Part shown: positions 26,927 to 63,925 of the stretch, piece by piece
Position numbering within the stretch: the first letter of the stretch is position 1
Layout: every line of letters starts with the position of its first letter
Assembly: GCA_001782235.1 (NCBI GenBank)
Contig: MFOC01000007.1
Span: 13,094-77,093 of the forward strand
Length of the DNA: 64,000 nucleotides
Direction of reading: 5' to 3'
Source: Candidatus Levybacteria bacterium RIFCSPHIGHO2_02_FULL_40_18
GTDB taxonomy: Bacteria > Patescibacteriota > Microgenomatia > Levybacterales > GWA1-39-11
The notes under the pieces: generated by a model
Databases searched by the model: none
What the model was told of the DNA's origin: nothing
Seen by the model: the letters and a program-made list of their open reading frames with translations, nothing else
Made by a program: the position numbers and the translations under genes

Positions 26927-27007
26927 GTTTATATTATATAATACACATTGGGTCTTGTTGCTTGGGATTTGTAAAAGGTTCCAACATAGTCAACTAGGCA
27001 CCGCACG

Positions 27008-27079: not shown

Positions 27080-27089
27080 CCTTAATTTT

Positions 27090-27524: not shown

Positions 27525-27575
27525 CTCTTATTTTATAATTCACATACGAGCCTTATTGAAAAATGGGGAAAACCA

Positions 27576-27665
27576 GGTGGGATGTCCGAGTGGTTTAAGG
27601 AGCACGCTTGGAGAGCGTGTATGGCCGTAAGGTTATCCCGGGTTCGAATCCCGGTCCCACCGCCA
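27576..27665 (+). tRNA. tRNA-Ser (anticodon GGA), long variable arm, CCA encoded
   Basis: Acceptor GGTGGGA/TCCCACC; anticodon stem CACGC/GCGTG with loop TTGGAGA; T arm CCGGG-TTCGAAT-CCCGG; 3' GCCA. Confidence 0.85.
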
Positions 27666-27666
27666 A

Positions 27667-28224: not shown

Positions 28225-28295
28225 ACTCTAATAATGCACCAAAACGACCACAGAATCAAGTGGTTCGAAAACTCTGGCCCGCCGAGTGTTCTGGA

Positions 28296-29168
28296 TTATA
28301 GTTCGAGGAGGTTAGTACTCTCGCCCTTTTTGGAGTCTTTGATATACTGCAGGTATCGCTCGGTTGAGGAAAGTCTTTTGTGTCCCAATACCTTTGACAG
28401 GAAAACCATAGAAATCCCATGTTTCAGATGGTGGGCGACAAAAGTATGCCTAAGATCATTTATCTTCGCACTCTCAATTCCTGCTCTCTTAAAATACCGC
28501 TCAATTGCGTCTCTAATATTTCTTACCAAGAAGGGCCTGCCGGTTTTTGTAACAAAAAAGTGGTCATTTGCGCTTTGAGGCCTTGCGGACAAATATCTTT
28601 TTAGCGCATCTTTTGCTCGTTTATTTAACGGTACTGTTCTTTGGGGGTGGCCTTCATAAGGCCGGACCGTAAGAACGCTATCTGAGACATCTTCCACCCT
28701 AATATTTGCTAGTTCTCCAATTCTAATGCCTGTTTGAAGCAGAACCTCGACAATCGCGTAAATTCTTGGATCTCCTGAGGCAGCATCTCTTAATGCCCTA
28801 TATTCAAGGGGGGACAAAATCCTGGGAGGATTTAACTCATATTTTGGATGTTTGACCAGAAGCGAGGGATCGTCTGTAATGTATTCACTGACCTTCAGGA
28901 ACCTATAGAAGGTTCTTGTAGAGTTAAGTTTTCTTGAAACAGACTTTGGTGTATATCCCCGGGACTCCATTGAGGCAAGAAAGGCCGCAATATCATCGCT
29001 TGTCACCTCATGAATGTGCTCACGTTTTAATTCCTCAAGAAATGATATAAGTTGGTCAATATCTTTACCGTATGCTAAGATAGTGGCAGAGGCCTTATTT
29101 TTGGACCTAAGAAAGCCCTCAAATTTTGCCTTTGCTTCTCTTATTTTTATGGGATTCATAAAATTCAA
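28296..29168 (-). CDS. Tyrosine site-specific recombinase (XerC/XerD / phage-integrase family)
   Basis: N-terminal SAM-like domain; C-terminal catalytic residues in conserved order (…GIRIGELANIR…, HTFVAHHL, LGHKRLSSTERYLQY). 290 aa. Confidence 0.8.
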   Translation of the reverse strand: MNFMNPIKIREAKAKFEGFLRSKNKASATILAYGKDIDQLISFLEELKREHIHEVTSDDIAAFLASMESRGYTPKSVSRKLNSTRTFYRFLKVSEYITDDPSLLVKHPKYELNPPRILSPLEYRALRDAASGDPRIYAIVEVLLQTGIRIGELANIRVEDVSDSVLTVRPYEGHPQRTVPLNKRAKDALKRYLSARPQSANDHFFVTKTGRPFLVRNIRDAIERYFKRAGIESAKINDLRHTFVAHHLKHGISMVFLSKVLGHKRLSSTERYLQYIKDSKKGESTNLLEL

Positions 29169-29245
29169 TAAAGCCTATAATATCAACAGGAAGTATATTT
29201 GTCAATCCCGAGTATTAACCGGGGATTGACCCTTCCACTTTCACA

Positions 29246-29581
29246 ATGAAAAAAATCCTGCCCGTAATTGCTATTATTATTTTGCTGATTGTTATTAAAA
29301 ATAACATATCCGGAATTTTTAAAACGCTTGAAGATGAAAATACTGCCGGAAATCTTAAAGAGAAACTGAGCGAGGAACAAAGGGAAAACCTGTTTTTGAA
29401 AGAACGGCTGTTTTACGTTAAAACAAATCAATTTGTTGAGGAAGAAGCTCGGGAGAAGCTTTTGATGAATAGGCCTGGAGAATATGTGGTGATTGCACCT
29501 ACTTCTGCCCCGCTCAACCGCGAAAAAATCGAAGTTGAAACCCGCCCCAACTGGCAAAAATGGTTCGAACTATTTTTCTAA
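29246..29581 (+). CDS. Cell division protein FtsB/DivIC family (septum formation initiator)
   Basis: N-terminal TM helix, coiled coil, and the hallmark EEEAREKLLMNRPGEYVV motif. Confidence 0.6.
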   Translation: MKKILPVIAIIILLIVIKNNISGIFKTLEDENTAGNLKEKLSEEQRENLFLKERLFYVKTNQFVEEEAREKLLMNRPGEYVVIAPTSAPLNREKIEVETRPNWQKWFELFF

Positions 29582-30007
29582 TTTATCTCTATATAGCCTT
29601 ACGAATTCGGGCCACTGAGAATGCATCGGCGAAGGCAACATCTTAAACGTAAACCATCCTAGTCTTTCATGCCTCTTAGGGTCTCCATTCTTTACCTTTT
29701 TTGGATCAATTCGAACCTTGTAATCAAATGCTATCCAGTGTGTTTTTCTTCCTTTTTCATCCTTTCGATGAACATCACGAAATCCTAAAAATTCAGCTTC
29801 GATAATATCAGTACAATACTCTTCCCGAATCTCCCGTGCAAGTGTTTTGAGAATTGGCTCTCCAAAATTCACTCCCCCACCCCCAGGATCCCATTTTCCA
29901 TGCTCATCCCGAGCCTTATTTGTTCGCTTTGCAAGAAGAAAATTACCATCCCCATCATGGCAAAAGAATACAACTCCAACCCCAACATGATCCACACCTT
30001 TTCTCAC
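29570..30007 (-). CDS. NUDIX hydrolase
   Basis: GGGGVNFGEPILKTLAREIREEYC Nudix box. Confidence 0.7.
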   Translation of the reverse strand: MRKGVDHVGVGVVFFCHDGDGNFLLAKRTNKARDEHGKWDPGGGGVNFGEPILKTLAREIREEYCTDIIEAEFLGFRDVHRKDEKGRKTHWIAFDYKVRIDPKKVKNGDPKRHERLGWFTFKMLPSPMHSQWPEFVRLYRDKLEK

Positions 30008-30102
30008 AAGTCCGATTATAGCAAATGTGTTGCCTGCCCTGAAGAATTTGAAGGGCGGAGATTGGAGGAAATTAGAAAGAATTTCCTGAAGAAAATTTGA
30101 GG

Positions 30103-30357
30103 CTAAATTTTGAGTTTTAAAATTTTTATTTTCTTTTCTCTACTCCAGCCTTTGATTCGACTTTCCCGTTTTAAAGCAGCGGATTTTGATTCGAGTCGTT
30201 CGGTATAGACTAGTTTAATTGGCTTATGCGAGCGTGTGTATCTACCACCTTTGCCATTCTTATGATCTTTGAACCGTGCTTGCGGATTATTCGACGACCC
30301 AGTATAAAGACTGTCATCAGAACATAAAAGAATGTATACAAACCACATCTCTTTCAA
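30103..30357 (-). CDS. GIY-YIG nuclease family small protein
   Basis: WFVYILLCSDDSLYTGSSNN…RFKDH in an ~84-aa UPF0213-like protein. Confidence 0.75.
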   Translation of the reverse strand: MKEMWFVYILLCSDDSLYTGSSNNPQARFKDHKNGKGGRYTRSHKPIKLVYTERLESKSAALKRESRIKGWSREKKIKILKLKI

Positions 30358-30436
30358 TTGTAACTCGAAAGTGGTATAATTTTTGAACGTAAAACGTGCG
30401 GGGTAGTGTAAAGCTGCACAGGAGGCTCATAATCTC

Positions 30437-32173
30437 CTAGACAAGGTGCGATTCCTTGCTCCGCAACACAGTAGGAATTGAGGCATACTTTTCTTCAAAT
30501 TGTGCCCGTAATTCAGCCTCTTTCTCAGGTGCGACCCTTTCCGCAATCACCGGAGATTCTTTTCTCATTCTTGCAATCGCTCCAATGTATTTTGGACTGT
30601 CAAATATAACCTTTTTATCCATAAGTGTTAGGTGCAACCCTAATCCCATAAAAATATCCCGTTTCACTTTAATATCCGGAAGGGCAAATCTCGCTCTAGC
30701 TCTTGCTACAAAATTGAAAGCGCTGGCAGTATCGTTATTGGATTGAATCATCTGCTCATCAAAGTTGCCGAGTTGCTTCTCAATAGCCTTTAATTCGCTC
30801 TCTAGTGCCTCTTTTTGCTCTTTGTATTGTTCGTCTGATAAAAGACTGCTATCAGCATTTGTTGGCGATATTTTAAGCTGTAAGAGGTTGTTCAGTTTTA
30901 TCCTGCAGGAATCGTGTGCCTTTTTAATACCTTTAACTGCTTCTTCCTCAAAATCCTTATTTGCTTCGTTCATTTTGCGAATTTGTTTTATTGCCCAATT
31001 CATAAAAAGAGGGGAAATTTCAACCTGTGAAAGCCTGTTGTCTATTTGTTCCTCAAGGTTATCTACTCTGACTGCGCGCTGTAAGCACGCAGAATTTTTC
31101 TTTCTTCCACACCTGTAATAAACATAGTGAAGTATTTTAGGATTATTCATGTTCTCAATAATTGTTCCACAATCCGTGCATTTATCCTTGTTCTTTTGGG
31201 TAAGGGAAAACTTTGTCTTACAGCTTGAGCAGATACATTGCCATTTTTGTTCAGCTACTATTCCTGAATTACAGAACCCGCAGCGCATAAGGGCATTGAA
31301 AGCATAATCATTATGTTTGAGCTTGTATTGACTCCTACCACCCAACTTCATTTGAATTTCATTAAAAACTTCCTCACTCACGGCTTTTTCATGGCCGCCT
31401 TCATACCATTTCCCACTCCCCAAGGGATATTCAAACTTTCCGCAGTAGAAGGGGTTAGTCAAAATAAAATATATCATAGATAGAGAAAGTGGCTTGCCGC
31501 CTATTCTCTTGTGTTGCCTAGTTTTAAAATGCCATTCTTCATCCGCGATTCTGTGAATTTCAATCGCAGGCGTCCCGGAATGAAATAGCTCAAAAATCTT
31601 TTTTACGTATGGCATACGCTCCGGGTCTGTGGGTATTTTCCTTAATCCGCTTTCGGTTGCTTTGTCATTCAAATATCCTTGTGGGGCTACTCCCGGTCTC
31701 CATCCGTTGCGCGCTTTTCCTTCCAAACCCCTACTTACGACGATACTTTTATCATCACTGTCTTTCTTAGACATTCCAAATTCAAGGGCTAACATAAATT
31801 TATCTTCCGGCGTGTTGCGATATGCACGAGAAGGGGTGCGGATTTCAATAAGTTTTCCTTCGTCCATTAGGTATAATAGTTGTCCTGCGTCAAGAGAGTT
31901 GCGGCATAGTCGGTTAGGATGCCATGTTAATATTGCATTTGCTTCACCTTTCTCTATTCTTTGAAGCATAAGGTTAAAAAGGGGTCTACCTGTCTTAAAA
32001 GCTGATTGGGATTCTTGTAAAACATCAACTACTGAAAGATTTTGTTTCGTTCGGACTCCCTCAATAATGTAAAGTTGGTCAGGTAAAGAGGCGGCTTGTC
32101 TCTCGCGGTTGTCTTCGGAAGATTTACGGGCGTAGCCTATATATTTCAATCTCAATTGTTCATTCATCTTCAT
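30437..32173 (-). CDS. Large serine recombinase (resolvase/invertase catalytic domain + recombinase domain + zinc ribbon)
   Basis: N-terminal YIGYARKSSEDNRERQAASLPDQ (catalytic Ser), recombinase domain, Cys-rich zinc ribbon (CGFCNSG…CSSC, CTDCG), and a C-terminal coiled coil. Confidence 0.85.
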   Translation of the reverse strand: MKMNEQLRLKYIGYARKSSEDNRERQAASLPDQLYIIEGVRTKQNLSVVDVLQESQSAFKTGRPLFNLMLQRIEKGEANAILTWHPNRLCRNSLDAGQLLYLMDEGKLIEIRTPSRAYRNTPEDKFMLALEFGMSKKDSDDKSIVVSRGLEGKARNGWRPGVAPQGYLNDKATESGLRKIPTDPERMPYVKKIFELFHSGTPAIEIHRIADEEWHFKTRQHKRIGGKPLSLSMIYFILTNPFYCGKFEYPLGSGKWYEGGHEKAVSEEVFNEIQMKLGGRSQYKLKHNDYAFNALMRCGFCNSGIVAEQKWQCICSSCKTKFSLTQKNKDKCTDCGTIIENMNNPKILHYVYYRCGRKKNSACLQRAVRVDNLEEQIDNRLSQVEISPLFMNWAIKQIRKMNEANKDFEEEAVKGIKKAHDSCRIKLNNLLQLKISPTNADSSLLSDEQYKEQKEALESELKAIEKQLGNFDEQMIQSNNDTASAFNFVARARARFALPDIKVKRDIFMGLGLHLTLMDKKVIFDSPKYIGAIARMRKESPVIAERVAPEKEAELRAQFEEKYASIPTVLRSKESHLV

Positions 32174-32351
32174 CTTTTTTTATTTTATACACTAAGTTTA
32201 ACTTTTGGCAAGTTGTCGCCGTAAATAGCTTTTATAAACTTTATAAGCTTTGTTGCAAGCCCTACAGCTTCTTGATCGTTTAATTCTTCTCCATACTCTT
32301 TCAGGTATAACTCTTTAAATTCGGCAACAGCTTGAGGGTCTAATTGCACAG

Positions 32352-32888
32352 TTATTCCCTCTCCCTTTCTGTATCCTCTTGGAAACTACTATCAAAAGAA
32401 CCTAAATCAACCCTAGAAGAACGATAAAGCCTTTGGGGGGTATTCCGATCTCGTTTCTCTTGCGAAATTGCATATTTCTCTTGCAATTCTGCATTAATCC
32501 TATACATATCTGCATAAAGGTCGTGCGGATTTGCATAATCTTTATCATACATTTTGTCAGCGACGTCGGTCAGAAAAAGAGGTAAATAGCCTAGAAGTAT
32601 GTATCGTTTGTGTTTAATTGCATACTTTCTGTCTTTGGCTTCTAGCTTATCAAGTCCTCTTGAGAGTTTGCTTTGGCTAATATTGAGAAGGGCAGCTATT
32701 TCCGTCTGCGTCCCAACAACATGGCCAAATTGATTTGGATACTTCCTGTCCCACCTTGCGTCAATCACTAACGCTATGTAGAGACTAAACAGGTGATAGC
32801 CAATATCCTGTCTAAGCATTTTAGAATGTCTTGGTAGCGCTAGATAGCCATGATACCGTTTAGCTTCATCTTTATTCATATTCATCAC
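32352..32888 (-). CDS. Hypothetical protein with a putative HTH
   Basis: EIAALLNISQSKLSRGLDKL is HTH-like. Confidence 0.3.
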   Translation of the reverse strand: MMNMNKDEAKRYHGYLALPRHSKMLRQDIGYHLFSLYIALVIDARWDRKYPNQFGHVVGTQTEIAALLNISQSKLSRGLDKLEAKDRKYAIKHKRYILLGYLPLFLTDVADKMYDKDYANPHDLYADMYRINAELQEKYAISQEKRDRNTPQRLYRSSRVDLGSFDSSFQEDTERERE

Positions 32889-32900
32889 TCCATTGCATAT

Positions 32901-33155
32901 TTATCGCCTTGCAAATAGGCGGTCTTTTAGTGTTTTGATTGAGGTTGCGTATTCTTTGGCGTCAACTTGAAGTTCGCCTGCCCAATAAGCATTAGAGGAG
33001 TGTTCGCAGGAGTTCTTGTCAGCAAATACGAACCAATAGAAGTTTTGCTCTTGCTCTAGCCGGAGTAGTTTTGCCCCTTTGGCTGTCAAGGCGGCCGCTT
33101 CTGATAAATCCTTTGTTCTATAAATATCTTTTCCCCCTACATCCCCATTTTCCAT
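32901..33155 (-). CDS. Small hypothetical protein (possibly DUF5659-like)
   Basis: 84 aa; YRTKDLSEAAALTAKGAKLL… pattern recalled as recombinase-associated; weak. Confidence 0.25.
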   Translation of the reverse strand: MENGDVGGKDIYRTKDLSEAAALTAKGAKLLRLEQEQNFYWFVFADKNSCEHSSNAYWAGELQVDAKEYATSIKTLKDRLFARR

Positions 33156-33222
33156 ATAAAAAGACTAAATGCTATGCTTGGGCTAATCATAAAGGATGAG
33201 GCGGATTGAATATAAGAGACGG

Positions 33223-33891
33223 TTAAGGACTTGCTAAATGTCCCCCTGAATTTAAGAAGGCTTTATATCTTTTAATCTGTTTCTTTACATTGTCTACAAA
33301 TGCTCTCGGATCAATTGCTCCTCTGTATGGCGTTCCTGTCGCGATCTGCAGGAGTTTTGCCCCACTTTTCCTTAACCAATACCATTCTCGATCCCTTTTT
33401 ATTTCCTGCTTGGTATCTCCCTTATAAGCACTTTCTAATGGAAGATAAATATTTGAAACTGTATATAACCAATCTCCGTATTTAAAATTTTTCTTTGAGA
33501 TTTCAGACTCGTTTAGATCTTCATTCCTTACCTCTCCGCATACCAATGCTCGTAAAATAAGATCATATAGCGATGGTGAAATGCCGAGCCTTTTTAATAA
33601 TTGCTCAGCCTCGAACTCAACAGGATCCAAATATGCAATCTCGCGTTCTTTGGATGGATCATCTCCTAAATTGTCTTTTGCTTCATAGAGAATCGAAGCG
33701 GCATGCGAACTTAATGGGAAGTCATGGTATGATTCGCGCCATGAATGATACTTATCATAGGGAATCAGACCCTTATTGAGCCTCCAACACTGTCTGATTT
33801 CAATGAAGCTGTTAAGAAGTTTATCCTGATCGAGGATAAATGCAACTCCTGCAAATGTCTTTAAATCGTCAATCTCAATATCAATCTCCAT
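33223..33891 (-). CDS. Hypothetical protein
   Basis: 222-aa ORF, divergent from the next gene; no recognised motif. Confidence 0.35.
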   Translation of the reverse strand: MEIDIEIDDLKTFAGVAFILDQDKLLNSFIEIRQCWRLNKGLIPYDKYHSWRESYHDFPLSSHAASILYEAKDNLGDDPSKEREIAYLDPVEFEAEQLLKRLGISPSLYDLILRALVCGEVRNEDLNESEISKKNFKYGDWLYTVSNIYLPLESAYKGDTKQEIKRDREWYWLRKSGAKLLQIATGTPYRGAIDPRAFVDNVKKQIKRYKAFLNSGGHLASP

Positions 33892-34407
33892 TTGAGGACA
33901 TTCTACACAAAACCCCTACTCGGTTGCCACCTGTGGGCCGCGAGGATGCCCTGTGGCAAGAGATTATATGAGGTTTTAGGAAATACCCCGACTTGCAAAC
34001 GGGTTTATAATATAAATATGGAAAATTCAGTGGTAGCCGTCCCTATTGGTAGGCCGGCATTGAGTAACGATGACATAAACCTCATTTTCCGCAAATTAGA
34101 GCCACACTTAAAGATGGGATTGTCTATCAATAGAGCTTGTTATAAAGCCTCGATTCCAAAATCTACAGTCTATGATTTATACAATGAAAATAGTCAATTT
34201 GCGGAAAGAATCGATACTGCTCGAAATTACTTTACAGACTTAATAAATAACATAATACATACTGAATTATTAGACATAGTTGAGTTTCAAAAGATTAGCT
34301 TGGGCCCTTTAAATACAGATGAGAAAAAGTTCATACTATGGATTGCCGCAAATAGCAACGCCATGAAAGAGTATTATTGCTCCAACATCCAAAAGATAGA
34401 TGAGTAA
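33892..34407 (+). CDS. Hypothetical protein (possible HTH; the true start may be the internal Met near 34018)
   Basis: LSINRACYKASIPKSTVYD is HTH-like. Confidence 0.35.
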   Translation: MRTFYTKPLLGCHLWAARMPCGKRLYEVLGNTPTCKRVYNINMENSVVAVPIGRPALSNDDINLIFRKLEPHLKMGLSINRACYKASIPKSTVYDLYNENSQFAERIDTARNYFTDLINNIIHTELLDIVEFQKISLGPLNTDEKKFILWIAANSNAMKEYYCSNIQKIDE

Positions 34408-34728
34408 TTTATAAAATCAGCTTCAAAGTGGCTCAGAAAACTCGGGTCTTCACCTTTTAAATGGCTCCACAAACTCTACAAATCTCTTTTTAATGGCTCT
34501 AAAAACTCCAATTGACCAAGAATGCTATAATCAAGCTATAATTTGATTGCCTAAACTCACAGTAATGTGGGCATGGCACAAAAACCTTCGCAGAATTAAG
34601 CTCGTCGTCAGAGCATCTGCGAAGGTTGTCGCCCGAAAGGACGGCAGGTGGGGCAACCCATCGTTGGCGGCGAGCTTTGCTATTGTTCGCCTCCAACAAA
34701 ACCTAAACTGTCGAGGGAGGTGAAAAAT

Positions 34729-35172
34729 ATGGGTAAATTAAAATTAGCAGGAATTATTTTTGTAGCATTTATTATCGGCGTATTCGTTGGTATTTCAGGA
34801 AACGGTAGGAGTTCTACTACAAATAGTCAGGAGATAAAACAATCTACAAGCACCAATAGTCCTGCCCCATCAGAAGAAGCAAAAGATACGGGTAAAGTTG
34901 AGGTCAAAAGCCAATCGAAAAAGATATCATCAATTGGATATATGGAAATAGTCGGTGAAGTAGTAAACAATACAGATAGACCTGTGTCATCTATCAAAAT
35001 AACAGCAACCTACTATGATGAGGAAGGTAAAGTCATAGGGACGAGCTTCTCTTATGCAGGGGACACATCAGATACGCCGCTTGCGGTTGGAGCGACAGCT
35101 CCATTTGAGGTAAGCAGCTATCCGGATAAAATAGATACTGACAACTATAAACTTGATGTTAATTGGAATTGA
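34729..35172 (+). CDS. Hypothetical secreted/membrane-anchored protein
   Basis: MGKLKLAGIIFVAFIIGVFVGISG signal-anchor, then a Ser/Thr-rich linker and a beta-rich domain. Start taken at the Met with a GGGAGGTG SD. Confidence 0.4.
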   Translation: MGKLKLAGIIFVAFIIGVFVGISGNGRSSTTNSQEIKQSTSTNSPAPSEEAKDTGKVEVKSQSKKISSIGYMEIVGEVVNNTDRPVSSIKITATYYDEEGKVIGTSFSYAGDTSDTPLAVGATAPFEVSSYPDKIDTDNYKLDVNWN

Positions 35173-35239
35173 TTCCTTTTTTGTTTTTTGGTCAGTTGCT
35201 TTTATGAGTCAAGCTCTACATTAAGTAGGAAAATCTTAT

Positions 35240-36007
35240 GTGGTATATTCTCGTCCTATAGGTATGATTAAAGCGTTAGTCGTCATTTTAGCTTTTCTTG
35301 CATTTCTTATATCCCTTACTCCTACTTCTCATGCGGCATATAAAGAAACTGAAATGGACAAGAAAAAGCTTTTCAAGATAGTGAGTATTACTGATGGCGA
35401 TACAATTACTGCAAGTATTCGCAGAAAAAATGAGAGTTTAAGGTTGCTCGGAATTGATACTCCTGAAAGCGTTGATCCAAGAAAGCCGGTTCAGTGTTTT
35501 GCGAAAGAGGCCACAAACAAAATGAAAGCATTTGTTTTAGGCAAGTTTGTAAAGTTGGTTGACGATCCAACGCAGGGGAATAGAGATAAATATTCAAGAC
35601 TTCTCCGTTATGTTTATTTGCCTGACAGCAAAGCGACTTTTGTAAATGGAGAGATGGTTAAACAAGGGTATGCTTTCTCCTACAGACAATACCCGACAAA
35701 AATGCTCGAGAAGTTCAATGCTTTTGAAAAATACGCACGAGAACATAATTTGGGCTTGTGGGGTTCATGTCCTATAAACGTGAACCCGTCAGCAACACTT
35801 AAACCTGTAAGAACTACAAACCTACCTGTTCAAAATCAACGACCATCACAGTCAGGACCAACTTATACCGGAGGAGACAAGGATTGTTCTGATTTTGCGA
35901 CACACGCGGAAGCTCAAACCTTCTTTATTTCACAGGGCGGGCCGGCAAGCGACCCTCACAGACTTGATGCAGACCATGACGGTCTTGCTTGTGAAACTCT
36001 ACCCTAA
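35240..36007 (+). CDS. Secreted thermonuclease (SNase-like) with a C-terminal Excalibur calcium-binding domain
   Basis: Signal-anchor; SITDGDTITA…LGIDTPES; YVYLPDSKATFVNGEMVKQGYA; C-terminal DADHDGLACE Excalibur motif. Confidence 0.7.
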   Translation: MVYSRPIGMIKALVVILAFLAFLISLTPTSHAAYKETEMDKKKLFKIVSITDGDTITASIRRKNESLRLLGIDTPESVDPRKPVQCFAKEATNKMKAFVLGKFVKLVDDPTQGNRDKYSRLLRYVYLPDSKATFVNGEMVKQGYAFSYRQYPTKMLEKFNAFEKYAREHNLGLWGSCPINVNPSATLKPVRTTNLPVQNQRPSQSGPTYTGGDKDCSDFATHAEAQTFFISQGGPASDPHRLDADHDGLACETLP

Positions 36008-36074
36008 ATCTATTTAGGTTAAAAGTTGAGGTAAAACAATCTCAATGTATGACGCCTCTATTAAAATAAGCGCC

Positions 36075-36896
36075 CTATGTAAAACTATTGTTTAAAAAGA
36101 ATTCTCGTATATCAAACACTCTTTTTGAATAATCAACAAACATCTGTATATTGTGTAAAGCGACCTTTCTCACAGGCATATTCCCGGTAGGATGTCCTGC
36201 TTGATTTCTGTTAACACGGATGAAATTGAAAATTCCATCAAGATATGTATCAAGATCTTGTTTAAGGTCTGTAGGAATTTGGTTTAGAAAGTGAGATAGC
36301 TCTGCTTTGAAGATTGTATATTGAGAGGTAATCCATTTATCTCTTATTCGATTTTGGAAAGAAGATCGTCTAGTCGTATTTGGAAGCGCTTGAGCAAAAG
36401 ATTCGATTAGAAGGAGGACTACATTTTCAGATGCAACACCAAGAGTAATAGCAGATGAAAGGAGCAGGTCTCGATTATATGCTGTAATTGCTTCGCCTAG
36501 ATATTTTAAAGTAATATCATCTACGCTTGCTACTTGAGCTTTATACTCCGCTAAATATCCATCAGGATCGTAAGGAAGAATTATCTCATTTTGGAAACAC
36601 TCCTCGCCGTAGCTCGTAACTGATATATACCCAAAACTTTGAGCATCCAAGTCATTTTTATTTCCAAAAGCAAGAAGTCCATTAGAAACCCATTCGTTGA
36701 TTATTTCAAGAATTATTGGGTTAGTTTTTGCTTCTTCGAGGTGATTATATTCGGGCATCATATTCCTAAACAAATCCCTGACGGATTGAATAAGCGTCTG
36801 CCCTTTATAATTACATACCGATTGAAAATCGTCAGAGGAGCACTTTTTAAAGAAAGTGAACATGTGTGTTCTTATCTCGTCTCTCGTCATACTCAA
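36075..36896 (-). CDS. Hypothetical protein with an Rx4H motif (HEPN-like; possible Abi-type defence protein)
   Basis: RVNRNQAGHPTG contains R-x4-H. Otherwise alpha-helical and acidic; no other recognised motif. Confidence 0.35.
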   Translation of the reverse strand: MSMTRDEIRTHMFTFFKKCSSDDFQSVCNYKGQTLIQSVRDLFRNMMPEYNHLEEAKTNPIILEIINEWVSNGLLAFGNKNDLDAQSFGYISVTSYGEECFQNEIILPYDPDGYLAEYKAQVASVDDITLKYLGEAITAYNRDLLLSSAITLGVASENVVLLLIESFAQALPNTTRRSSFQNRIRDKWITSQYTIFKAELSHFLNQIPTDLKQDLDTYLDGIFNFIRVNRNQAGHPTGNMPVRKVALHNIQMFVDYSKRVFDIREFFLNNSFT

Positions 36897-37147
36897 TGAT
36901 AATATTATACCTTACAAGAAAAAAGGGTAGATTATGAAATAATAGTGGTGAAATTAAGCTAATTGTGGTATAAATACAGGTGTGGTTTGGGTGAGGAAGT
37001 AGGTGCGGATTTCTTCCAACCCCCGCAACAACGAACCATTCGCTATCGCTCAGGTTCATCGCTGCGCAGCCTAAGAAGCGAGTGTGAGGCAGGAATGTAC
37101 CGGAGTCCTACGACTGGTACGTTCCAACGAAAAAAACCTCTTATCCT

Positions 37148-54266: not shown

Positions 54267-54869
54267 ATGAGTCTGGCAGAAAGACTTAACGAACGAGTTC
54301 CCAATAATGAAGACGTTATCCTGCTTAGAAGGACAAGAATTAACTATGACGCTGATAAAACATCCGCATTGGCAACCGCTAAAAGACGCCTTATCGATTC
54401 GGGATCTTTTGATATTGTTGAAGAACTCTTAGAACTTGTTGAGGGTTCATGGGTTAACTTTAGTGAGGATAATCCACCTTCCGGCTTGCCCGTCTTAGGT
54501 AATCGTTCCCCATTTTTGGGTTTGGGACTTTATCGGGGACGGGATAGTACAATTACATATAACAAGTGGGTTAAGATTGAGTTTGGTTGGATTAATAAAA
54601 TAAGAGATGAAGAGGAAGATATTTCTGTTTCGGGGGAAGGATCAAAAAGCTTTTTAGCTATAACGGCACCGGAAACTTCTGACCAAATTATTATAGGAGC
54701 CAGTTCATATGATCTGGCTTTTCTTTCTGACCCAATCCGCTTCAAATATACTCTGTCAAGAGAACAATATTTAAACAGAGAACTTTTTGAAAACGTGATT
54801 GTGGAAGCTTCAGTTTTAGCAGGTTTAACAAAACCAAACTTAAAGTTGAAGGGAGCCAGAAATGAGTGA
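54267..54869 (+). CDS. Hypothetical protein A1 (paralog of 55587-56150)
   Basis: MSLAERLNERVPNNEDVILLRRTRINYD… aligns with A2 at the N-terminus (MSL.ERL..R.P.NE..ILLRRTR) and the C-terminus (LFE..IVEA..LAGLT). The two share a near-identical 5' leader. Confidence 0.45.
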   Translation: MSLAERLNERVPNNEDVILLRRTRINYDADKTSALATAKRRLIDSGSFDIVEELLELVEGSWVNFSEDNPPSGLPVLGNRSPFLGLGLYRGRDSTITYNKWVKIEFGWINKIRDEEEDISVSGEGSKSFLAITAPETSDQIIIGASSYDLAFLSDPIRFKYTLSREQYLNRELFENVIVEASVLAGLTKPNLKLKGARNE

Positions 54870-55485
54870 TTTTGAGAGAGAGCTAAAAAGAGCGAAAGTT
54901 GAGGCAGAAAGGGCCAGATTGCAAGAGGAAGCAAGAAAAAATAGAGAGGCTGATGAGCAAGATAGAACTTACAGGCAGAGAGTAAGGCAACTTGAGCAGT
55001 TAAGAGAACAAGAGGTAGATAGATATTTGGCCCCGTTTAAGAGCACGGTTGATAGATTGCTGAAAGATCTGGGTAACGCCACTTGGGGTGCGGGCAAATA
55101 CGGTTTCATCTTTAGAAAAGGGGTTCGTGTGGGGGGTTCCGGTTCTGGGCCAGAAGTTGAAAACAAAAATCACATCGCGACTTGGATTATTGGGAGACAG
55201 GAATATTTTAGTAGCATCGGTAGCCTTTTCGGTAGTGGGCATGTTTGGCGTCCTATAACTAATAAAGGCAAGTACGGCGAGGAACCCACTGGCTGTAGTG
55301 AGTATTTCTATGTTAATTTAGGTATGGAGAGTCCGCAAGGCACTTTCCACTTTGAGGGGTTAGACGGAATTACTACTGGCTCCTCAGAATCTGAACTTAA
55401 AGAAATGCTAAAAAGAGCTTATCTAGAGGGGCCTAAAAAAACATATCCTCATGTAACATATGACGCACATGGCCTTGGAGGCTAG
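54862..55485 (+). CDS. Hypothetical protein B1 (N-terminal Arg/Glu-rich coiled coil + Gly-rich globular domain)
   Basis: Overlaps A1 by 8 nt. TWGAGKY, VRVGGSGSGPEV. Confidence 0.45.
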   Translation: MSDFERELKRAKVEAERARLQEEARKNREADEQDRTYRQRVRQLEQLREQEVDRYLAPFKSTVDRLLKDLGNATWGAGKYGFIFRKGVRVGGSGSGPEVENKNHIATWIIGRQEYFSSIGSLFGSGHVWRPITNKGKYGEEPTGCSEYFYVNLGMESPQGTFHFEGLDGITTGSSESELKEMLKRAYLEGPKKTYPHVTYDAHGLGG

Positions 55486-55586
55486 TTTTTATAGAATAGC
55501 CTCAAAAGGCTAGGCCTTGGCGAGCTTACGAGACTAGAATTGTTCGTTTTGCTTTTTAAAACCTTTTGGAGTAAAATCTGACCAAA

Positions 55587-56150
55587 ATGAGCTTAAAAGA
55601 GAGGCTTGAGGCAAGGGCTCCAAAAAACGAATCTACTATATTACTCCGGAGAACCAGGCTAGAATTTGAGCAGGATAGAAATAGTCATTTGGCTCCAGTT
55701 AGAAAAAGGCTGTTAACATCGGGGGTGTTCGAAGTATTAGAAGAACTCTTGGAAACGGTTGAAGATTCTCGATTTAGCGTCAGTCCAAACTATCAGGAGT
55801 TCCCTCCCCAGCATATTCCTGCCACCGCTGCGACAGCCCTTATATGTTCTTGGGCAGTCTTTAAGACTTTTGAACATATCGACGGCGAACCTGATTTGAA
55901 ACAAACCTCAAGACGGTCTGTAAAAATTACTGCCTTCTTAAATTCGGACAATATCGAAGTTGCATCAAGAGAAGACACCGTTTTATTTTTTGAAAATAGG
56001 CGAGACCCCTTGCTACCGTCAGGCAAAGAGGTTTTCAGAAAAACCTTATCCCCTAAAGAATGGCAGAATGGGGATTTGTTTGAAACTACAATTGTTGAGG
56101 CTTTAACCTTAGCTGGGCTAACAAGATCTCAGCTAAATTTGGGAAATTAA
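55587..56150 (+). CDS. Hypothetical protein A2 (paralog of 54267-54869)
   Basis: See A1; the upstream leader at 55540-55586 is near-identical to 54220-54266. Confidence 0.45.
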   Translation: MSLKERLEARAPKNESTILLRRTRLEFEQDRNSHLAPVRKRLLTSGVFEVLEELLETVEDSRFSVSPNYQEFPPQHIPATAATALICSWAVFKTFEHIDGEPDLKQTSRRSVKITAFLNSDNIEVASREDTVLFFENRRDPLLPSGKEVFRKTLSPKEWQNGDLFETTIVEALTLAGLTRSQLNLGN

Positions 56151-56953
56151 AGAAGTTTAGGGATCAAGGAACTTCGATAGTCCTCACCGACAATTTTGCC
56201 AAGGTCTTTTCTAATCCATTCCTCGCCTTTTCTTTGAAGGTCTTGTGGGAGAGTGGAAGTTTGAGTTGATTTAGTGCACATACCAACTAAGAGATTTTCA
56301 ATTGCTTCTTTGGTTGCTCCTAAAAAATCAAACCCATCTGGATATGTTTTGGGAGAGCCGTAATTTACGGGTTTAGGATTGTTCGGATAAATAGTTCGGC
56401 TGAAACTTGAGGTGCGGCCATCCCCATATTCAATCAAAACGTCGGAATTACAGTAAACAATGAAGGGGAATTCACGGCCTGAATTGTCTGGAACTATGGA
56501 GATTCCCAAGGTAATAAATTTCTTTCCTTCAGTGCGTACTAATTTATACTTTTTCACGCCATTGCCAGAAGTGTATCTTAAGTCTACTCCTATAAAGGGG
56601 GGTGAGCTTTCAGTGTGTGAGAATTCTTTTTTTAAGGTTGGATATTTAAAGCTAAGTTCGTATTCAGCATTTAAAATTACCGATCCCGGATCTTGGGGAT
56701 CAGCGATAATTCTTGGATCTGTTATTTGTCCTGCTTTCCAGACATCGCGCCTTATTCCTTCCAGCATTTCCCTTATGCCAAGAGTTTGGAGAATAGCAAT
56801 TGCTTCGGGGGTTTTTCTTTTGATCTCTTCGGCCCTTCTCGTAGCGTCTTCTCGAGCTTTTCTTTGTCTTGCCTCTTCTTCTCTTTGAGGTTTTAGAAGC
56901 TCATCTCTAATTCTTTCTTGCCAGTTCACGGTGGAGAGATGATAACAAATCAT
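56147..56953 (-). CDS. Hypothetical protein B2 (distant paralog of B1; convergent with A2 and overlaps it by 4 nt)
   Basis: N-terminal REEEARQRKAREDATRRAEEIKRK coiled coil and VWKAGQI (compare TWGAGKY in B1). Confidence 0.4.
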   Translation of the reverse strand: MICYHLSTVNWQERIRDELLKPQREEEARQRKAREDATRRAEEIKRKTPEAIAILQTLGIREMLEGIRRDVWKAGQITDPRIIADPQDPGSVILNAEYELSFKYPTLKKEFSHTESSPPFIGVDLRYTSGNGVKKYKLVRTEGKKFITLGISIVPDNSGREFPFIVYCNSDVLIEYGDGRTSSFSRTIYPNNPKPVNYGSPKTYPDGFDFLGATKEAIENLLVGMCTKSTQTSTLPQDLQRKGEEWIRKDLGKIVGEDYRSSLIPKLL

Positions 56954-58928: not shown

Positions 58929-59294
58929 TCAAAACCCCGATATATTCTCAAGATGCTCAAGACTTTCTACCTTGTTACCGGGCGAAAGAATAATACCTAT
59001 TGCGTCTATTCGCATAAAATCTGGGAGATTAGGATGGAGTTGTTTGTAAAATTGCGCGAGACGTACAAGATGTTTTAATTTCCAAGGGGTAATTGATTCA
59101 AAAGGCGAGCCGAACGAATCAGATCTTCGAGTCTTGACTTCAACAAATACCAAAGTCGAATTTTTGATTGCAATAATATCTATTTCTTGATATTTCTTGC
59201 GAAAGTTTCGCTCAATAATCTTATAGCCTTTGCTCACCAAATACTCGCACGCCAAATCCTCCCCTATTTTTGCAATCGGATTGACTATTTTCAT
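58929..59294 (-). CDS. yraN: YraN family (UPF0102) endonuclease
   Basis: IGEDLACEYLVSKGYKIIERNFR…IDIIA…VFVEVKTR. Confidence 0.8.
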   Translation of the reverse strand: MKIVNPIAKIGEDLACEYLVSKGYKIIERNFRKKYQEIDIIAIKNSTLVFVEVKTRRSDSFGSPFESITPWKLKHLVRLAQFYKQLHPNLPDFMRIDAIGIILSPGNKVESLEHLENISGF

Positions 59295-60421
59295 TTTTCA
59301 AGAGGGGTGAGGCCGGGGAGTTTGTGGCCGGACAGGAATTCTAGCATTGCACCGCCGCCGGTTGAGACAAAATCGAAATTATCAAGAAGATTTATTCGGC
59401 GAAGATACGCCAATGTGTCTCCCCCTCCAACCACTTTATACGCTTTTGTCGAAACAATAAATTCTGCAAGTTCTCGTGTGCCTTGCTCGCTATCTATTTT
59501 GTCAGAAAAATTGATCATTCCGACTGGCCCGTTCCAAACAATAGTCGCGGCCAACCCCAAAATCTGTTTAAAATTCTCTATTGACTTTGGAGTAATATCA
59601 AAACCGTCTTCTCTCAAATCCGCCACTAACACCGCGGACTTTGGCCCTTTTATTTCTTCGTGCTGAACCTTTATTAAAACGCGGGTTTGTTCGGCAATTT
59701 CTCCGCCAACCAGAACATAGTCGGCAACATGGTGCATCTTTGAAACCAGGGGCAGTTTTGTTTCAATTTTTGCCCCTCCAATAAGTACCGCTAGGGGACG
59801 TCTTGCCGCCGGCCCAGAGGGCCTCTGGCCCGGAAGGGGATTATTTAAAATCTTTGAAAGTTCACTAACTTCTTTTGCAAGATGCAATCCGGAATAAGAA
59901 GAAAGAAATTTTGTCACCCCCACAATACTTGCGTGTTCGCGATGACAAACCGCAAAAGCATCATTAACATAAATATCTCCCAGAAGCGCCAATTCACGAG
60001 CGAACGCGAGTCCTGAGGCGGTCGTTGGATTCTTTTCTTCTCCTTTGAAGAATCGAACGTTTTCGATGAGATTAATTCGATCAGTAATTTTCCACCCTGG
60101 AAAATCTCCAATTTTTGTCTCTTCGACTTTCCCATCGAATTTTTTCGCGTACCAATGCGCAATCGATTTTAAACTAAATTCGTTATTTATACTTAATACT
60201 TTATACTTACTACTTAATACTGGCTCCGGCCGCCCAAGATGTCCTACAATATTCACATCCGCCCCTTTTTTTAATAGAAATTCGATTGTCGGAATCGCAG
60301 AAGAAAGTCTTGTATCATCTATTATTCGACCATTTTCGATATCGACATCAGTATCAATCCTAAGCAAAACAGTTTTTCCAGAAAGATCTGAGAGAGAATC
60401 TATTGCGCGAAGTTTACTCAT
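59291..60421 (-). CDS. pgk: Phosphoglycerate kinase
   Basis: Typical Pgk N- and C-terminal domains (…VLLRIDTDV…, …GGGDTLAYL…). Contains an in-frame tandem repeat (SSKYKVLSINNEF). Confidence 0.88.
   Translation of the reverse strand: MSKLRAIDSLSDLSGKTVLLRIDTDVDIENGRIIDDTRLSSAIPTIEFLLKKGADVNIVGHLGRPEPVLSSKYKVLSINNEFSLKSIAHWYAKKFDGKVEETKIGDFPGWKITDRINLIENVRFFKGEEKNPTTASGLAFARELALLGDIYVNDAFAVCHREHASIVGVTKFLSSYSGLHLAKEVSELSKILNNPLPGQRPSGPAARRPLAVLIGGAKIETKLPLVSKMHHVADYVLVGGEIAEQTRVLIKVQHEEIKGPKSAVLVADLREDGFDITPKSIENFKQILGLAATIVWNGPVGMINFSDKIDSEQGTRELAEFIVSTKAYKVVGGGDTLAYLRRINLLDNFDFVSTGGGAMLEFLSGHKLPGLTPLEK
60190..60222. repeat. TACTTAATACT-family tandem repeat, in frame inside pgk
   Basis: tacttaatactttatacttactacttaatactg. 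Confidence 0.75.
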
Positions 60422-60769
60422 TACCTTTTTATACTATTTTTCAGGCAAAGAAAAAAGCCCGGACCGAAAAGTAGTAAGTTGATGAAATGCGTGTGAACGC
60501 ATAAACAGCATGCTAGACGCTGTTGATTCATCAACCGTTCCTAATCGGTCGGGGCTTCTCCTGCACTCTTTGAGTGTCATTCAATTGTTCGCGTACTTAG
60601 CACGACGGGGGTGGGGATGGCCATCTCTTCTCAAGGAAGTGGGCGAGAATTCCGCAAGGAATGCTTGTCACTCCTAGAGCAAAGTAGCCAACCATCACTG
60701 CGTAGAGAATCGAGTCCATTTCGTGCTCCTTTCATGAACGGCGAATCCCGATTTTTCGGAAACCCCAGG

Positions 60770-61192
60770 CTAGGACGAGCTGAGTACTCTCAGCACATCG
60801 TCGAATCGCTCATTCAAGACGAGATCAGCGGGCGTTCTCCCTTCGAGTTGGTGGTTCCTGGTTCGAAGCCATTCACACGCCTTGTCCATGTCTGGAAAGG
60901 CTTGTCGTAGCCTCCTCATAAGGGTTGTACCTGAGGCGAGGTGGCTCGCTTCGATTTTCGAGTAAATCAAGGCGCAGGGGATTTTCTCCCATTCGACCTC
61001 AACCTCATATTCAGGACCTCGTTGCTCTCGGCGATGAATCGCGAGGGCTGCACGTACCCATTCCGAGAACGGAATGCCGCGTTGTCGCGCTTTATCCGCC
61101 TCTTCACGGGCCTTTGCTCGATCCCAACCAAGCTCAACAACCATGTCGTAGACTTCATCTTCTGCCCGAGTGGGTTCATGCATTTGTTCCAC
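60770..61192 (-). CDS. DUF2384-like (Xre/MbcA/ParS-type) antitoxin-domain protein; no cognate RES toxin nearby
   Basis: C-terminal ACEWLRTRNHQLEGRTPADLVLNERFDDVLRVL resembles the toxin-binding domain of MbcA/ParS-type antitoxins. Confidence 0.45.
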   Translation of the reverse strand: MEQMHEPTRAEDEVYDMVVELGWDRAKAREEADKARQRGIPFSEWVRAALAIHRREQRGPEYEVEVEWEKIPCALIYSKIEASHLASGTTLMRRLRQAFPDMDKACEWLRTRNHQLEGRTPADLVLNERFDDVLRVLSSS

Positions 61193-61259
61193 GTCTTTTC
61201 TCCTTGTCTCGCCAAAGGCGGACTGAACGGCGATCCTTCGATGAACTCAGGACCCCGGG

Positions 61260-61451
61260 CTAGATGATGAGGCTTGCTGCGCCAATCAGGATAAGCAATA
61301 CCCCTATTGCCCCTGCAAAACCTAGGAAAACTATCTTGATCGAAACCTCGGTCGCAACGTCGGCCCTTCTTCTAGGCACACCCCAGACATTGAGCCAAGC
61401 AAAGATGATCGCTGCGGCTATGAGGAAGCCTCCGATCTTAATCAGTTCCAT
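61260..61451 (-). CDS. Small hydrophobic membrane protein
   Basis: GGAGGAGAAATG start context; two TM helices. Confidence 0.35.
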   Translation of the reverse strand: MELIKIGGFLIAAAIIFAWLNVWGVPRRRADVATEVSIKIVFLGFAGAIGVLLILIGAASLII

Positions 61452-61485
61452 TTCTCCTCCTTGAGAGAATTAATTTCTTACCATC

Positions 61486-61537
61486 AATATGTGGCATTCC
61501 GAATACCAACTACTTGCTATCCAGAGCGCCACATATT
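61486..61537. promoter_or_regulatory. 10-bp perfect inverted repeat (AATATGTGGC…GCCACATATT) upstream of the island-2 operon; putative operator
   Basis: Read directly; lies ~35 bp upstream of the small membrane-protein start on the minus strand. Confidence 0.4.
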
Positions 61538-61843
61538 ATGGTTTTCCACAAACCCCGAATAATCTTAACCGTTCGCCTTTTCAGTTCTGTTCGAACACGG
61601 CTCACGGAGCGATTTTACGGGGCAGGCAGCTGAATATGTCAAAGTGCTGCGCCTCTTCGGCGCACCCGCCGGCGAGGCGGGAAGAAAATGATTCGAGGCA
61701 AAATTCAAGCCGCTTCAACAACAGCAAAGCTTGCTGGATTAGCTCGGAATTTGCCCCAAAATACGCCTCCGATTATATACTAGAGAAAACAGTTAATCAA
61801 ATCTTATAGGATCTCCTATCTACTGGTATCTAGTTGCTATTCG

Positions 61844-63925
61844 CTAATTTGTTTGTGGAGTAGGAGTAACCGAAGGTATTGAAGCGCGGCAATTTACTGA
61901 ATTTTCGGTTCCTTTTATAAAATACCTATCCTGTCCAAGACAAAATTTCTTTACAACATTTCCGGGAATTATTGTTGCTTGCGGCGTACCGACTTTCTCA
62001 ATCATCATTGTCATTATTTTATTCCACATGGGGGCCGCACCGGTGATCCCTGATGCGAGAGCAGGATTTAGCGGGCTGTTATCATTATTTCCAACCCATG
62101 TAGCAACAAGTACATTTGGGGTAAACCCTACTGTCCAGTTATCACGCTTATTGTCAGTAGTCCCGGTTTTGACGGAAACGCGAGCTCCGGGGATAGCAAG
62201 CGGCGTGTCGATACCAAACTCAATTCTTCTTGCATTGCTGTCCGAAAGTATATCGGAAATTATAAAAGCAACTCCATCATCAAGAACAGAAGTTGCAACA
62301 GGCTCTTTCTCATAAATTGTCTTACCGAACGAATCTTTCACCGAAAGTATTGGATTTAAATTAACTCTATTGCCGCCATTCGCAATTACTCCATAAGCAG
62401 TTGCCATATCCGTCATTCTTACCTCAAGCCCGCCAAGCGTGATAGAAACACCGTAATTTTTGGCCCCTTGCCAAGATGCGATTCCCATTTTTTCTCCAAA
62501 TTCTTTGATTGCCGAGGGGCCCACTTTTTGAGCAACGCGAACCGCCGGGACATTGAAAGAATTGGCAAAAGCAGTGCGAAGGGGTACTTTTCCGTGAAAC
62601 GCTCCGTCATAATTAACAGGTGTATAAGACGGGCCTCCCGGTGTATGAATTGTCAATGGGGTGTCATCAAGAATTGTTGCCTCTGTGTAGCCATTTGATA
62701 AAGCCAATGAATAAGTAACAACTTTTATTGCTGAGCCGGGCTGACGAAGCGCGGTTGTAAGATTAACGTTCCCATTCTGCTCATCAAAATAGTTTTTACT
62801 TCCAACCATAGCAAGAATGTCTCCGTTTAACGGAGCCGTGATTAAAGCCGCGCCGTTTCCAATGTTAAGATAGGCGTTTGCCTCAACTTCTGAAGCAACA
62901 ATCTTTTCTACTTCCTCTTGAAGTGGAAGGTCAATACTTGTAATTACGCTCAAGCCCCCGCGTTCAACTTCACTTAATCCATATTTTTCAACCAGAAGTT
63001 TTCTAACATACATCACGAAATGAGGAGCTTTTATGGGGCTTTGAGGCTTTTTAATAATCAACTCCTCCCGATATGCTTTTTCGGCATCGGCGCGAGTTAT
63101 AAATCTTTCGCGCACCATGGCGTCAAGAACTTCTTTTTGGCGTTTTCTCCAAAGTTCACCATTCCCAAAAATAGGAGAGTAGATAGATGGCGCCCGCGGA
63201 AGCCCTGCAAGGAAAGCAGATTCCCCAAGAGTCAAGTCGGAAACATTTTTCCCAAAATAAATCTCAGCAGCCGATTGTATTCCCCAAGCAGTACCCCCAT
63301 AGGGTACATAGTTTAAATAAAGCTCGAGAATTTCATGTTTGCTGTAAATTCTCTCGGCCCAAAAAGCAAGCGCAACTTCGCGGACTTTTCTTATTATTGT
63401 TGGTTCAGGTGTCAGAAAAGCGGACTTTATAAGCTGCTGGGTGATGGTTGAGCCTCCCTGAAGCTCTGCGCCCTGAAGGTTTGAGACAGCGGCGCGGACA
63501 ATGCCTCGTAAATCAAAACCGGGATGATTGTAGAAATCTCTGTCTTCTATCGCAACTGTTGCATCACGAAGTGCCTTTGGAATATCTTCTAAAGAAACCA
63601 CAGTTCTATTTTGATTCGCAAATATTTCATATAGAAGATTGCCATTCCTATCATAAATTTTAGTAGTTTTAGGAATGTGATTTAAAGAGAGATTGGCAGG
63701 ATTTGGCAGGTCCTGTACAAAGATCAAAGAGACAAGAGGCGCAAAAAGGAAAACAAAGGAAAAAACAAAGCCTATGAAAACATATTTCAACTTATAAAGA
63801 AAAGACGGCCTGTGAATACCATTTCTTAATCTTGCCAGTTTTCTTTGCGAAGTTGTTCTTCTTCCTCTTTTAACAGTAGCCCGTGTTAAATACCATTTCC
63901 AAAAGCTCCCGAAAAAACCTCCCAA
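61844..63925 (-). CDS. Class A penicillin-binding protein (second copy)
   Basis: EDRDFYNHPGFDLRG, GGSTITQQLIKSAFL, transpeptidase region. Confidence 0.85.
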   Translation of the reverse strand: MGGFFGSFWKWYLTRATVKRGRRTTSQRKLARLRNGIHRPSFLYKLKYVFIGFVFSFVFLFAPLVSLIFVQDLPNPANLSLNHIPKTTKIYDRNGNLLYEIFANQNRTVVSLEDIPKALRDATVAIEDRDFYNHPGFDLRGIVRAAVSNLQGAELQGGSTITQQLIKSAFLTPEPTIIRKVREVALAFWAERIYSKHEILELYLNYVPYGGTAWGIQSAAEIYFGKNVSDLTLGESAFLAGLPRAPSIYSPIFGNGELWRKRQKEVLDAMVRERFITRADAEKAYREELIIKKPQSPIKAPHFVMYVRKLLVEKYGLSEVERGGLSVITSIDLPLQEEVEKIVASEVEANAYLNIGNGAALITAPLNGDILAMVGSKNYFDEQNGNVNLTTALRQPGSAIKVVTYSLALSNGYTEATILDDTPLTIHTPGGPSYTPVNYDGAFHGKVPLRTAFANSFNVPAVRVAQKVGPSAIKEFGEKMGIASWQGAKNYGVSITLGGLEVRMTDMATAYGVIANGGNRVNLNPILSVKDSFGKTIYEKEPVATSVLDDGVAFIISDILSDSNARRIEFGIDTPLAIPGARVSVKTGTTDNKRDNWTVGFTPNVLVATWVGNNDNSPLNPALASGITGAAPMWNKIMTMMIEKVGTPQATIIPGNVVKKFCLGQDRYFIKGTENSVNCRASIPSVTPTPQTN

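Follow-up and report, generated by a model that had tools for sequence, protein, structure and literature searches.

A GC-rich cassette inserted upstream of pgk in a Candidatus Levybacteria genome carries a DUF2384-type gene without a RES toxin gene

Patescibacteria are known for small, streamlined genomes. We analyzed a stretch of 64,000 nt from one of them, Candidatus Levybacteria bacterium RIFCSPHIGHO2_02_FULL_40_18 (this stretch is called the window, and all positions are counted within it). The start of pgk (59,291-60,421, minus strand) is separated from the stop of a gene encoding a class A penicillin-binding protein (PBP; 61,844-63,925, minus strand) by a gap of 1,422 nt, and the results showed that this gap is filled by a compositionally foreign block, hereafter island 2, as the original prediction from the bare sequence had proposed. 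Coding potential in island 2 was found on the minus strand only, in the same orientation as the flanking pgk and PBP genes, and comprised three small open reading frames (ORFs) of 63, 140 and 40 aa. The GC content reached 51% over 60,437-61,782, 53% in the core and 55% at the maximum in 300-nt windows, while the whole window has 40.8%; the predicted GC elevation was therefore seen, although the predicted range of 55-60% was slightly high. The GC content at third codon positions (GC3) was 0.54-0.59 in the ORFs of island 2 and 0.34-0.35 in pgk and the PBP gene, which located the composition shift at synonymous sites.

The identical 140-aa protein was encoded on seven contigs from different samples and different assembly sources. 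Both junctions of island 2 were covered by five of them, and all seven were 99.98-100% identical to the window. The same proteins were also present in GenBank, named 'hypothetical protein', in four Candidatus Levybacteria metagenome-assembled genomes (MAGs) from Rifle groundwater. In four related Patescibacteria genomes (L008-L011), the gene order PBP-pgk-UPF0102 was kept, with 63-66% identity for PGK and 70-74% for the PBP, and the site was empty, with 25-122 nt between the PBP gene and pgk. These results showed that island 2 is a real insertion. Deviant composition and an empty site in relatives, the marks of a horizontal island, were both found, supporting that island 2 is foreign, horizontally acquired DNA.

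All three ORFs have a Shine-Dalgarno sequence of the AAGGAG type at the proper distance upstream, and their positions are shown in Table 1. The 63-aa gene (Shine-Dalgarno AAGGAGG at 61,462-61,456) was called as a gene in all assemblies; together with the 40-aa ORF it flanks the 140-aa gene, consistent with the small hydrophobic ORFs predicted on either side of an antitoxin-like gene. The 140-aa protein has two domains: about residues 9-58 form a three-helix domain at the N-terminus, and about residues 70-139 form a DUF2384/MbcA-like domain at the C-terminus. The predicted DUF2384-type gene was confirmed by profile search, in which PF09722, the C-terminal toxin-binding domain of Xre, MbcA and ParS, matched residues 95-137 with 33.9 bits (cut-off 24.5). 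With NCBIfam NF049845, a curated model of the full-length RES/Xre antitoxin, the score was only 27.6 bits (cut-off 90). A profile of the 140-aa family matched MbcA in PDB at E 6e-4, and the AlphaFold model of the protein (predicted local distance difference test, pLDDT, 88) was all-helical, with an N-terminal three-helix unit at residues 9-58 and a C-terminal five-helix unit at residues 73-139. Neither Pfam nor the AlphaFold model revealed a recognisable Xre-type helix-turn-helix in the N-terminus, where the three-helix unit was found instead. Structural and sequence comparison with ribbon-helix-helix and ANTAR domains gave the N-terminus no clear assignment. The C-terminal domain of the 140-aa protein was shown to have a DUF2384-type fold.

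Homologues of the 140-aa protein were rare. When 1.84 billion representative proteins were searched exhaustively with HMMER, only 7 clusters were returned at E up to 0.001, and a word-index search added one further family member with 57% identity. No other gene is conserved among the cassettes of this family; its product has 137-168 aa, in which the C-terminal DUF2384 domain is joined to the distinct three-helix N-terminal domain; besides the window's own MAGs, one member was named as coming from a Patescibacteria genome. Six gene neighbourhoods were recovered, five of them with DNA (L014, L015, L016, L018 and L019), and at each of these five loci a GC-rich patch (46-55%) contained the homologue, although the contigs themselves have 31-45% GC. 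The neighbours of the homologues varied by locus and included membrane proteins as well as small soluble proteins of 70-173 aa, without Pfam or PHROG match at the reporting thresholds. Similar neighbours across cassettes were limited to two pairs, L014_70/L016_81 and L014_83/L014_128. No remnants of the partner proteins from L014-L016 were detected in the window. Searches for island 2 by tblastn against phage and plasmid collections gave no match, nor did a search of viral contigs with the profile of the 140-aa protein, and a metagenome scan with the profile returned the same gene only.

Some single loci of this family showed further peculiarities. In L014, whose cassette is larger (2.6 kb), paralogous small proteins (3,359-3,610 and 4,532-4,918; 43% identity) are encoded on either side of the DUF2384-type gene. 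In L016, the called gene upstream of the homologue (742-1,251) contains an in-frame TGA, which might be explained by an alternative genetic code or by an artefact of gene calling; under the standard code, the same region encodes two proteins, a membrane protein of 71 aa and one of 81 aa with similarity to a 70-aa protein of L014. A predicted 670-aa protein (P0005) was made up of about ten tandem 60-aa repeats resembling the N-terminal domain of the 140-aa protein and ended in ...RRGIPFSEP; it might be a genuine repeat protein or an oddity of assembly or gene calling.

DUF2384 proteins are usually interpreted as antitoxins that counter NAD-targeting RES toxins. When 60,400-61,860 was scanned with Pfam in six frames, PF09722 was the only match, with no RES domain or RES remnant in any frame, and the six-frame scan was likewise free of RES remnants within 350 nt downstream of the 140-aa gene. 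No RES domain was found among the window's longest non-overlapping ORFs of 70-500 aa, in line with the original prediction that no RES toxin follows the gene. Near the homologues, a RES gene was missing from 6/6 neighbourhoods, in which the scan covered the neighbours in the five loci with DNA and the sixth contig (P0007) was judged from precomputed Pfam marks only. Because all six homologue neighbourhoods are without RES, the RES lack is a trait of the 140-aa subfamily and not a recent loss in this genome. The suggestion of a degraded toxin-antitoxin (TA) system was thus not borne out. Searches of the island 2 proteins with PADLOC (defence systems) and against PHROGs (phage families) returned nothing.

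The non-coding parts of island 2 were rich in structure and partly shared with the other cassettes. The 16-mer CCTATAAKATTTGATT followed by N17-TATAAT begins the cassette of the window, in which the 16-mer occurs once, and recurs at the left edge of the L014 cassette. In viral contigs, this 16-mer had 85 matches, close to the estimated chance number, none of them with a -10 box or the second motif, and these matches were discarded. A long imperfect hairpin with a U-rich tract is located between promoter and box at an equivalent position and with equivalent topology in the window, L014 and L019, and the promoter scan placed a terminator-like site at 61,725-61,709. The box GCACTTTGAYA was also present in other leaders, exactly in L014, as GCACTTTGATA in L019 and with one mismatch in L015; in island 2, a possible -10 element (TAAAAT, 61,617-61,612) lies 19 nt downstream of it. 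The 324-nt leader folded at -129.5 kcal/mol (z -5.8) on the sense (minus) strand and at -102.7 kcal/mol (z -4.0) on the plus strand, and the coding region of island 2 had a fold z of -2.7. Rfam gave no family above threshold in island 2, and a lone miRNA-precursor match on a hairpin was meaningless.

Table 1. Positions of the cassette and of its genes, signals and predicted structures in the window
Feature	Position	Strand	Details
Whole inserted cassette, island 2	60,437-61,810	minus	Runs from conserved promoter motif to terminator tail abutting pgk -10 box; supported by GC/GC3 shift, empty site in L008-L011 and identity in seven assemblies
Promoter-like site P1	61,772-61,810	minus	CCTATAAGATTTGATT, 17 nt, TATAAT; promoter scan 10/12
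First leader hairpin then U-rich tract, attenuator or small-RNA-like	61,683-61,766	minus	-27.2 kcal/mol, z -2.3
Two adjoining GC hairpins	61,648-61,681	minus	CCCGCC..GGCGGG and UGCGCC..GGCGCA; not in L014 or L019
Conserved box	61,636-61,647	minus	GCACTTTGACAT, with -35-like TTGACA; exact match once in window, in island 2 leader
27-bp hairpin, 64 nt	61,480-61,543	minus	Three G.U pairs; -34 kcal/mol, z -7.5
63-aa protein	61,260-61,451	minus	ORF and hydropathy; two hydrophobic (transmembrane-type) segments
140-aa two-domain protein	60,770-61,192	minus	GTG start, Shine-Dalgarno AAGGAGA
40-aa hydrophobic ORF	60,597-60,719	minus	Shine-Dalgarno AAGGAG, 6 nt ahead of ATG
Branched terminator-like element	60,444-60,561	minus	Outer stem GAGAAGCCCCGACCGA / UCGGUCCGGGCUUUUUUC, then U-run
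pgk -10 region	60,427-60,436	minus	TAGTATAAAA; 6 nt before pgk ATG; one copy of 10-nt direct repeat

A palindromic operator had been predicted in front of the genes. The perfect 10-bp repeat on which it was based, AATATGTGGC/GCCACATATT at 61,486-61,495 and 61,528-61,537, was present, but it proved to be the outer part of the 27-bp hairpin, whose 64 nt stop 18 nt short of the Shine-Dalgarno sequence of the 63-aa gene and 29 nt short of its start codon. The 10-bp repeat alone was marginal, being present in 8% of dinucleotide shuffles of island 2, whereas the complete 64-nt hairpin (z -7.5) lay well outside chance. The inner stem of the hairpin is weaker on the plus strand; because hairpin and leader fold better on the sense strand than on the plus strand, this asymmetry points to an RNA structure in the transcript, although a protein may also bind the DNA.

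At the other end of island 2, the 3' element also folded stably (sense strand, -58.4 kcal/mol, z -5.9; plus strand, -52.8 kcal/mol, z -4.2). The 9-bp inverted repeat predicted at the left edge, GTTGATGAA/TTCATCAAC, was found at 60,478-60,486 and 60,527-60,535 as an inner stem of this branched terminator, the interior of which also holds two small hairpins. The tail GGG(C)TTTTTTCTTKG ends five cassettes (window, L014, L018, L019 and L016), a terminator stem enclosing extra hairpins was found in the window, L014, L015 and L018, and an identical 22-nt block is common to the 3' ends of L014 and L018. A consensus fold of four 3' elements contained a few compensatory pairs, the sequences being too few and too divergent for a firm result.

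Island 2 ends exactly upstream of the pgk -10 arrangement. The relatives carry a -10 box 6-9 nt before the pgk start (L011: TAGTATAAAAAAGAAGTG), and this arrangement is kept in the window (TAGTATAAAAAGGTAATG); the sites are located at 60,416-60,436 in the window, 5,975-6,000 in L009, 5,980-6,000 in L010 and 5,985-6,003 in L011. Since the -10 box is only 6-9 nt from the start codon, the pgk mRNA in this clade is suggested to be leaderless or near-leaderless. In L009, the spacer between the PBP gene and pgk contains a GCTATTC tandem repeat. The second copy of the 10-nt direct repeat of island 2, TAGTATATAA, was found at 61,773-61,782 within P1, so that the two copies bracket the GC-rich part. 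The direct repeat (TAGTATAWAA) is 9/10 identical, and its copies are the -10 boxes of P1 and of pgk; it could stem from a duplication, represent a microhomology that served integration, or be coincidental. L019 has a 14/16 repeat at the analogous position.

Taken together, these results suggest that island 2 belongs to a rare family of compact, GC-rich, RES-less cassettes in low-GC contigs. Overall, we put a probability of roughly 0.55 on island 2 being a foreign cassette from a RES-less DUF2384 family and not a decayed RES TA system. In this reading, island 2, which is inserted immediately upstream of the pgk -10 box, is a horizontally acquired, self-contained transcription unit of ~1.37 kb. 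In MbcA, ParS, Xre and NatR, the DUF2384 domain binds a partner protein, entering the toxin active site, and the N-terminal part does DNA binding or oligomerisation. Because of the analogy with these proteins, we read the 140-aa protein as a partner-binding neutraliser or regulator of the cargo. It would act like its solved relatives, as a protein-binding neutraliser or adaptor via the DUF2384 domain, while the N-terminal domain would dimerise or bind nucleic acids and so allow autoregulation, possibly via the conserved leader box. Its partner would be the variable cargo of the cassette, not a RES enzyme, and here the 63-aa and/or 40-aa membrane peptides. The cassette would then be a small addiction-like or regulator-plus-cargo module and not a wrecked RES-Xre system. 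The proposed neutralisation of the membrane peptides by the 140-aa protein is a tentative step in this scheme, to which we give a rather limited chance.

Several observations weigh against such a reading. The comparative sample comprises only six loci. The neighbours in the family are not conserved, and no fixed partner defines it. A homologue search with the 63-aa protein recovered only itself, under the name A3C30_03620 from Ca. Levybacteria; the 40-aa ORF was absent from the gene-finder calls and is without comparative support. Pfam scans of island 2 revealed no recombinase or transposase gene, and neither terminal inverted repeats nor a clear target duplication that would explain mobility was found in it. 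The binding of the 140-aa protein to the small peptides, or to any other partner, is putative and argued from analogy.

The main rival to peptide neutralisation is that the 140-aa protein does nothing but regulate the transcription or RNA of the cassette, and perhaps of pgk, without any toxin. Its putative targets would be the GCACTTTGAYA box or the leader hairpins described above, and the DUF2384 fold would act in sensing or oligomerisation. We consider this unlikely, though it has to be taken seriously. Next to the degraded TA system, the original prediction had offered an antitoxin that was co-opted to regulate the membrane peptides, and this may be the case.

In another explanation, the cassette could be a type I-like module, in which the 40-aa and/or 63-aa peptides are toxins held down by mRNA structure or by a small RNA from P1, and the 140-aa gene is unrelated cargo. 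The peptides are indeed small and hydrophobic, the 5' and 3' structures of the mRNA are very stable, and a short unit of hairpin and U-tract was found downstream of P1 in three cassettes. However, the promoter scan showed no promoter-like site on the plus strand, hence none for an antisense RNA, there was no Rfam match, and it is the 140-aa gene that is conserved in other cassettes and not the peptides. This makes a type I-like module improbable.

In other proteins, the DUF2384 domain is known as part of the antitoxins that pair with RES toxins (PMC3482391), and with no RES toxin at the locus, island 2 might be taken for a decayed RES-Xre system of the MbcTA/ParST type II kind, whose toxin was lately deleted and whose antitoxin is a leftover without a present role. 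Decay of this kind should be regarded as very improbable, as island 2 holds no RES remnant in any frame, RES is missing from all six homologue neighbourhoods, the 140-aa gene is intact with a strong Shine-Dalgarno sequence in a family conserved down to 31% identity, and the NCBIfam antitoxin model stayed far below its cut-off. Finally, a chimeric contig carrying DNA of a higher-GC organism, which the abrupt GC change at each edge might suggest, has a negligible chance and was ruled out, because the concordant contigs from different samples and assembly sources agree on the junctions, and the proteins recur in the four GenBank MAGs.

Island 2 was further compared with known systems. In the type II TA systems RES-Xre, MbcTA, ParST and NatRT, a DUF2384 (PF09722) antitoxin is combined with a RES toxin (PF08808). 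Island 2 shares the PF09722 domain but differs from them in that a RES toxin was found neither in island 2, nor in window ORFs of 70-500 aa, nor near the homologues, in its three-helix instead of Xre helix-turn-helix N-terminus, and in having small membrane proteins as neighbours. Like type I TA systems, it has membrane-type peptides, here 40-aa and 63-aa ORFs with strong Shine-Dalgarno sequences as putative toxins, and heavily structured mRNA ends; unlike them, it encodes a protein of antitoxin fold between the two peptides. The promoter scan and Rfam detected no antisense RNA or promoter for one; a sense-strand hairpin unit follows P1. Genomic islands have been reported to be frequent in aquifer Patescibacteria genomes (PMC12455944). 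Island 2 resembles these islands as a compositionally deviant, lineage-specific insertion in a streamlined genome, whereas its 1.4-kb length, the lack of an integrase or transposase, and a family with a core gene and non-coding signatures set it apart.

Integron cassettes with attC sites share with island 2 the short length, a structured, imperfectly palindromic 3' element and small cargo of unknown or TA-like kind. In contrast to them, the 3' element of island 2 closes with a GC stem followed by a U-run, as intrinsic terminators do, and the cassette has its own promoter. The attC cores RYYYAAC and GTTRRRY were not seen by eye in the 3' element, which ends in AAGCCCC and GGGGCTTTTTT; its GTTGATG / CATCAAC do not conform to them. 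The window showed no integron integrase, and its sole tyrosine recombinase lies at a distance of 31 kb. In the literature searched, neither the RES-less subfamily nor its cassette context or the shared non-coding signatures appear to have been described.

A second GC-rich block, island 1 (11,000-12,600; 57.6% GC), had been predicted to be a remnant of the same kind of element. It contains a 210-aa multi-pass membrane ORF (11,299-11,931, minus strand, GC3 0.72); the GC-rich sequence ahead of it, about 630 nt, holds no convincing ORF. Rfam gave no match in island 1, and the fold z was only -1.05. Islands 1 and 2 had no DNA or protein similarity and no common motif, and the GC3 of their ORFs differed; their common origin, for which GC content is the sole ground, is not supported.

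Elsewhere in the window, a cluster at 25,500-37,100 comprises six tRNA genes, two GIY-YIG proteins, a DUF5659 protein, several unannotated ORFs and the tyrosine recombinase mentioned above, which is of the phage-integrase family (28,296-29,168, minus strand); this cluster may be an integrated element. A full-length LOOT RNA (Rfam RF03000) was found at 34,548-34,662 on the plus strand, with 87 bits against a gathering score of 46.4. The GT4 glycosyltransferase ORF at 8,305-9,564 (minus strand) contains two near-identical insertions of about 25 aa, PAFSTPVSLRSQAGSLA[D/S]ASVRPSG, and is followed by a gene for a 23S rRNA intervening-sequence protein (9,595-9,996). A Fic/DOC-family protein is encoded at 568-1,629 (minus strand). 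At 17,581-18,112 (plus strand), a DUF2283 protein comes directly after a 102-aa ORF, and the two may be another small toxin-antitoxin-like pair. Four adjoining ORFs of 187-268 aa at 54,267-56,953 had no Pfam match, and the N-termini of two of them (54,267-54,869 and 55,587-56,150) are clearly paralogous.

The family cassettes described here are tiny and GC-rich, are located in low-GC contigs, at least two of them from Patescibacteria, and combine variable neighbours with shared regulatory sequences. They might represent a class not described before, mini-cassettes of Patescibacteria that lack a recombinase and insert at host promoters, in which the DUF2384 protein would neutralise interchangeable effectors encoded by the cassette (here the membrane peptides) and the conserved, structured RNA ends would serve in control or mobility; this broader proposal is speculative and its odds are low. 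As island 2 directly adjoins the pgk promoter, it may affect the expression of a core glycolytic gene. If the 140-aa protein is a regulator only, the case would be a warning against annotating an 'orphan antitoxin' from a domain match alone. If it neutralises other cargo, the known partner range of the antitoxin fold would be widened, and the pairing of a DUF2384 antitoxin with a membrane peptide as its toxin would be new among toxin-antitoxin systems. Neutralisation would also point to a simple type of selfish cassette in bacteria of the candidate phyla radiation.
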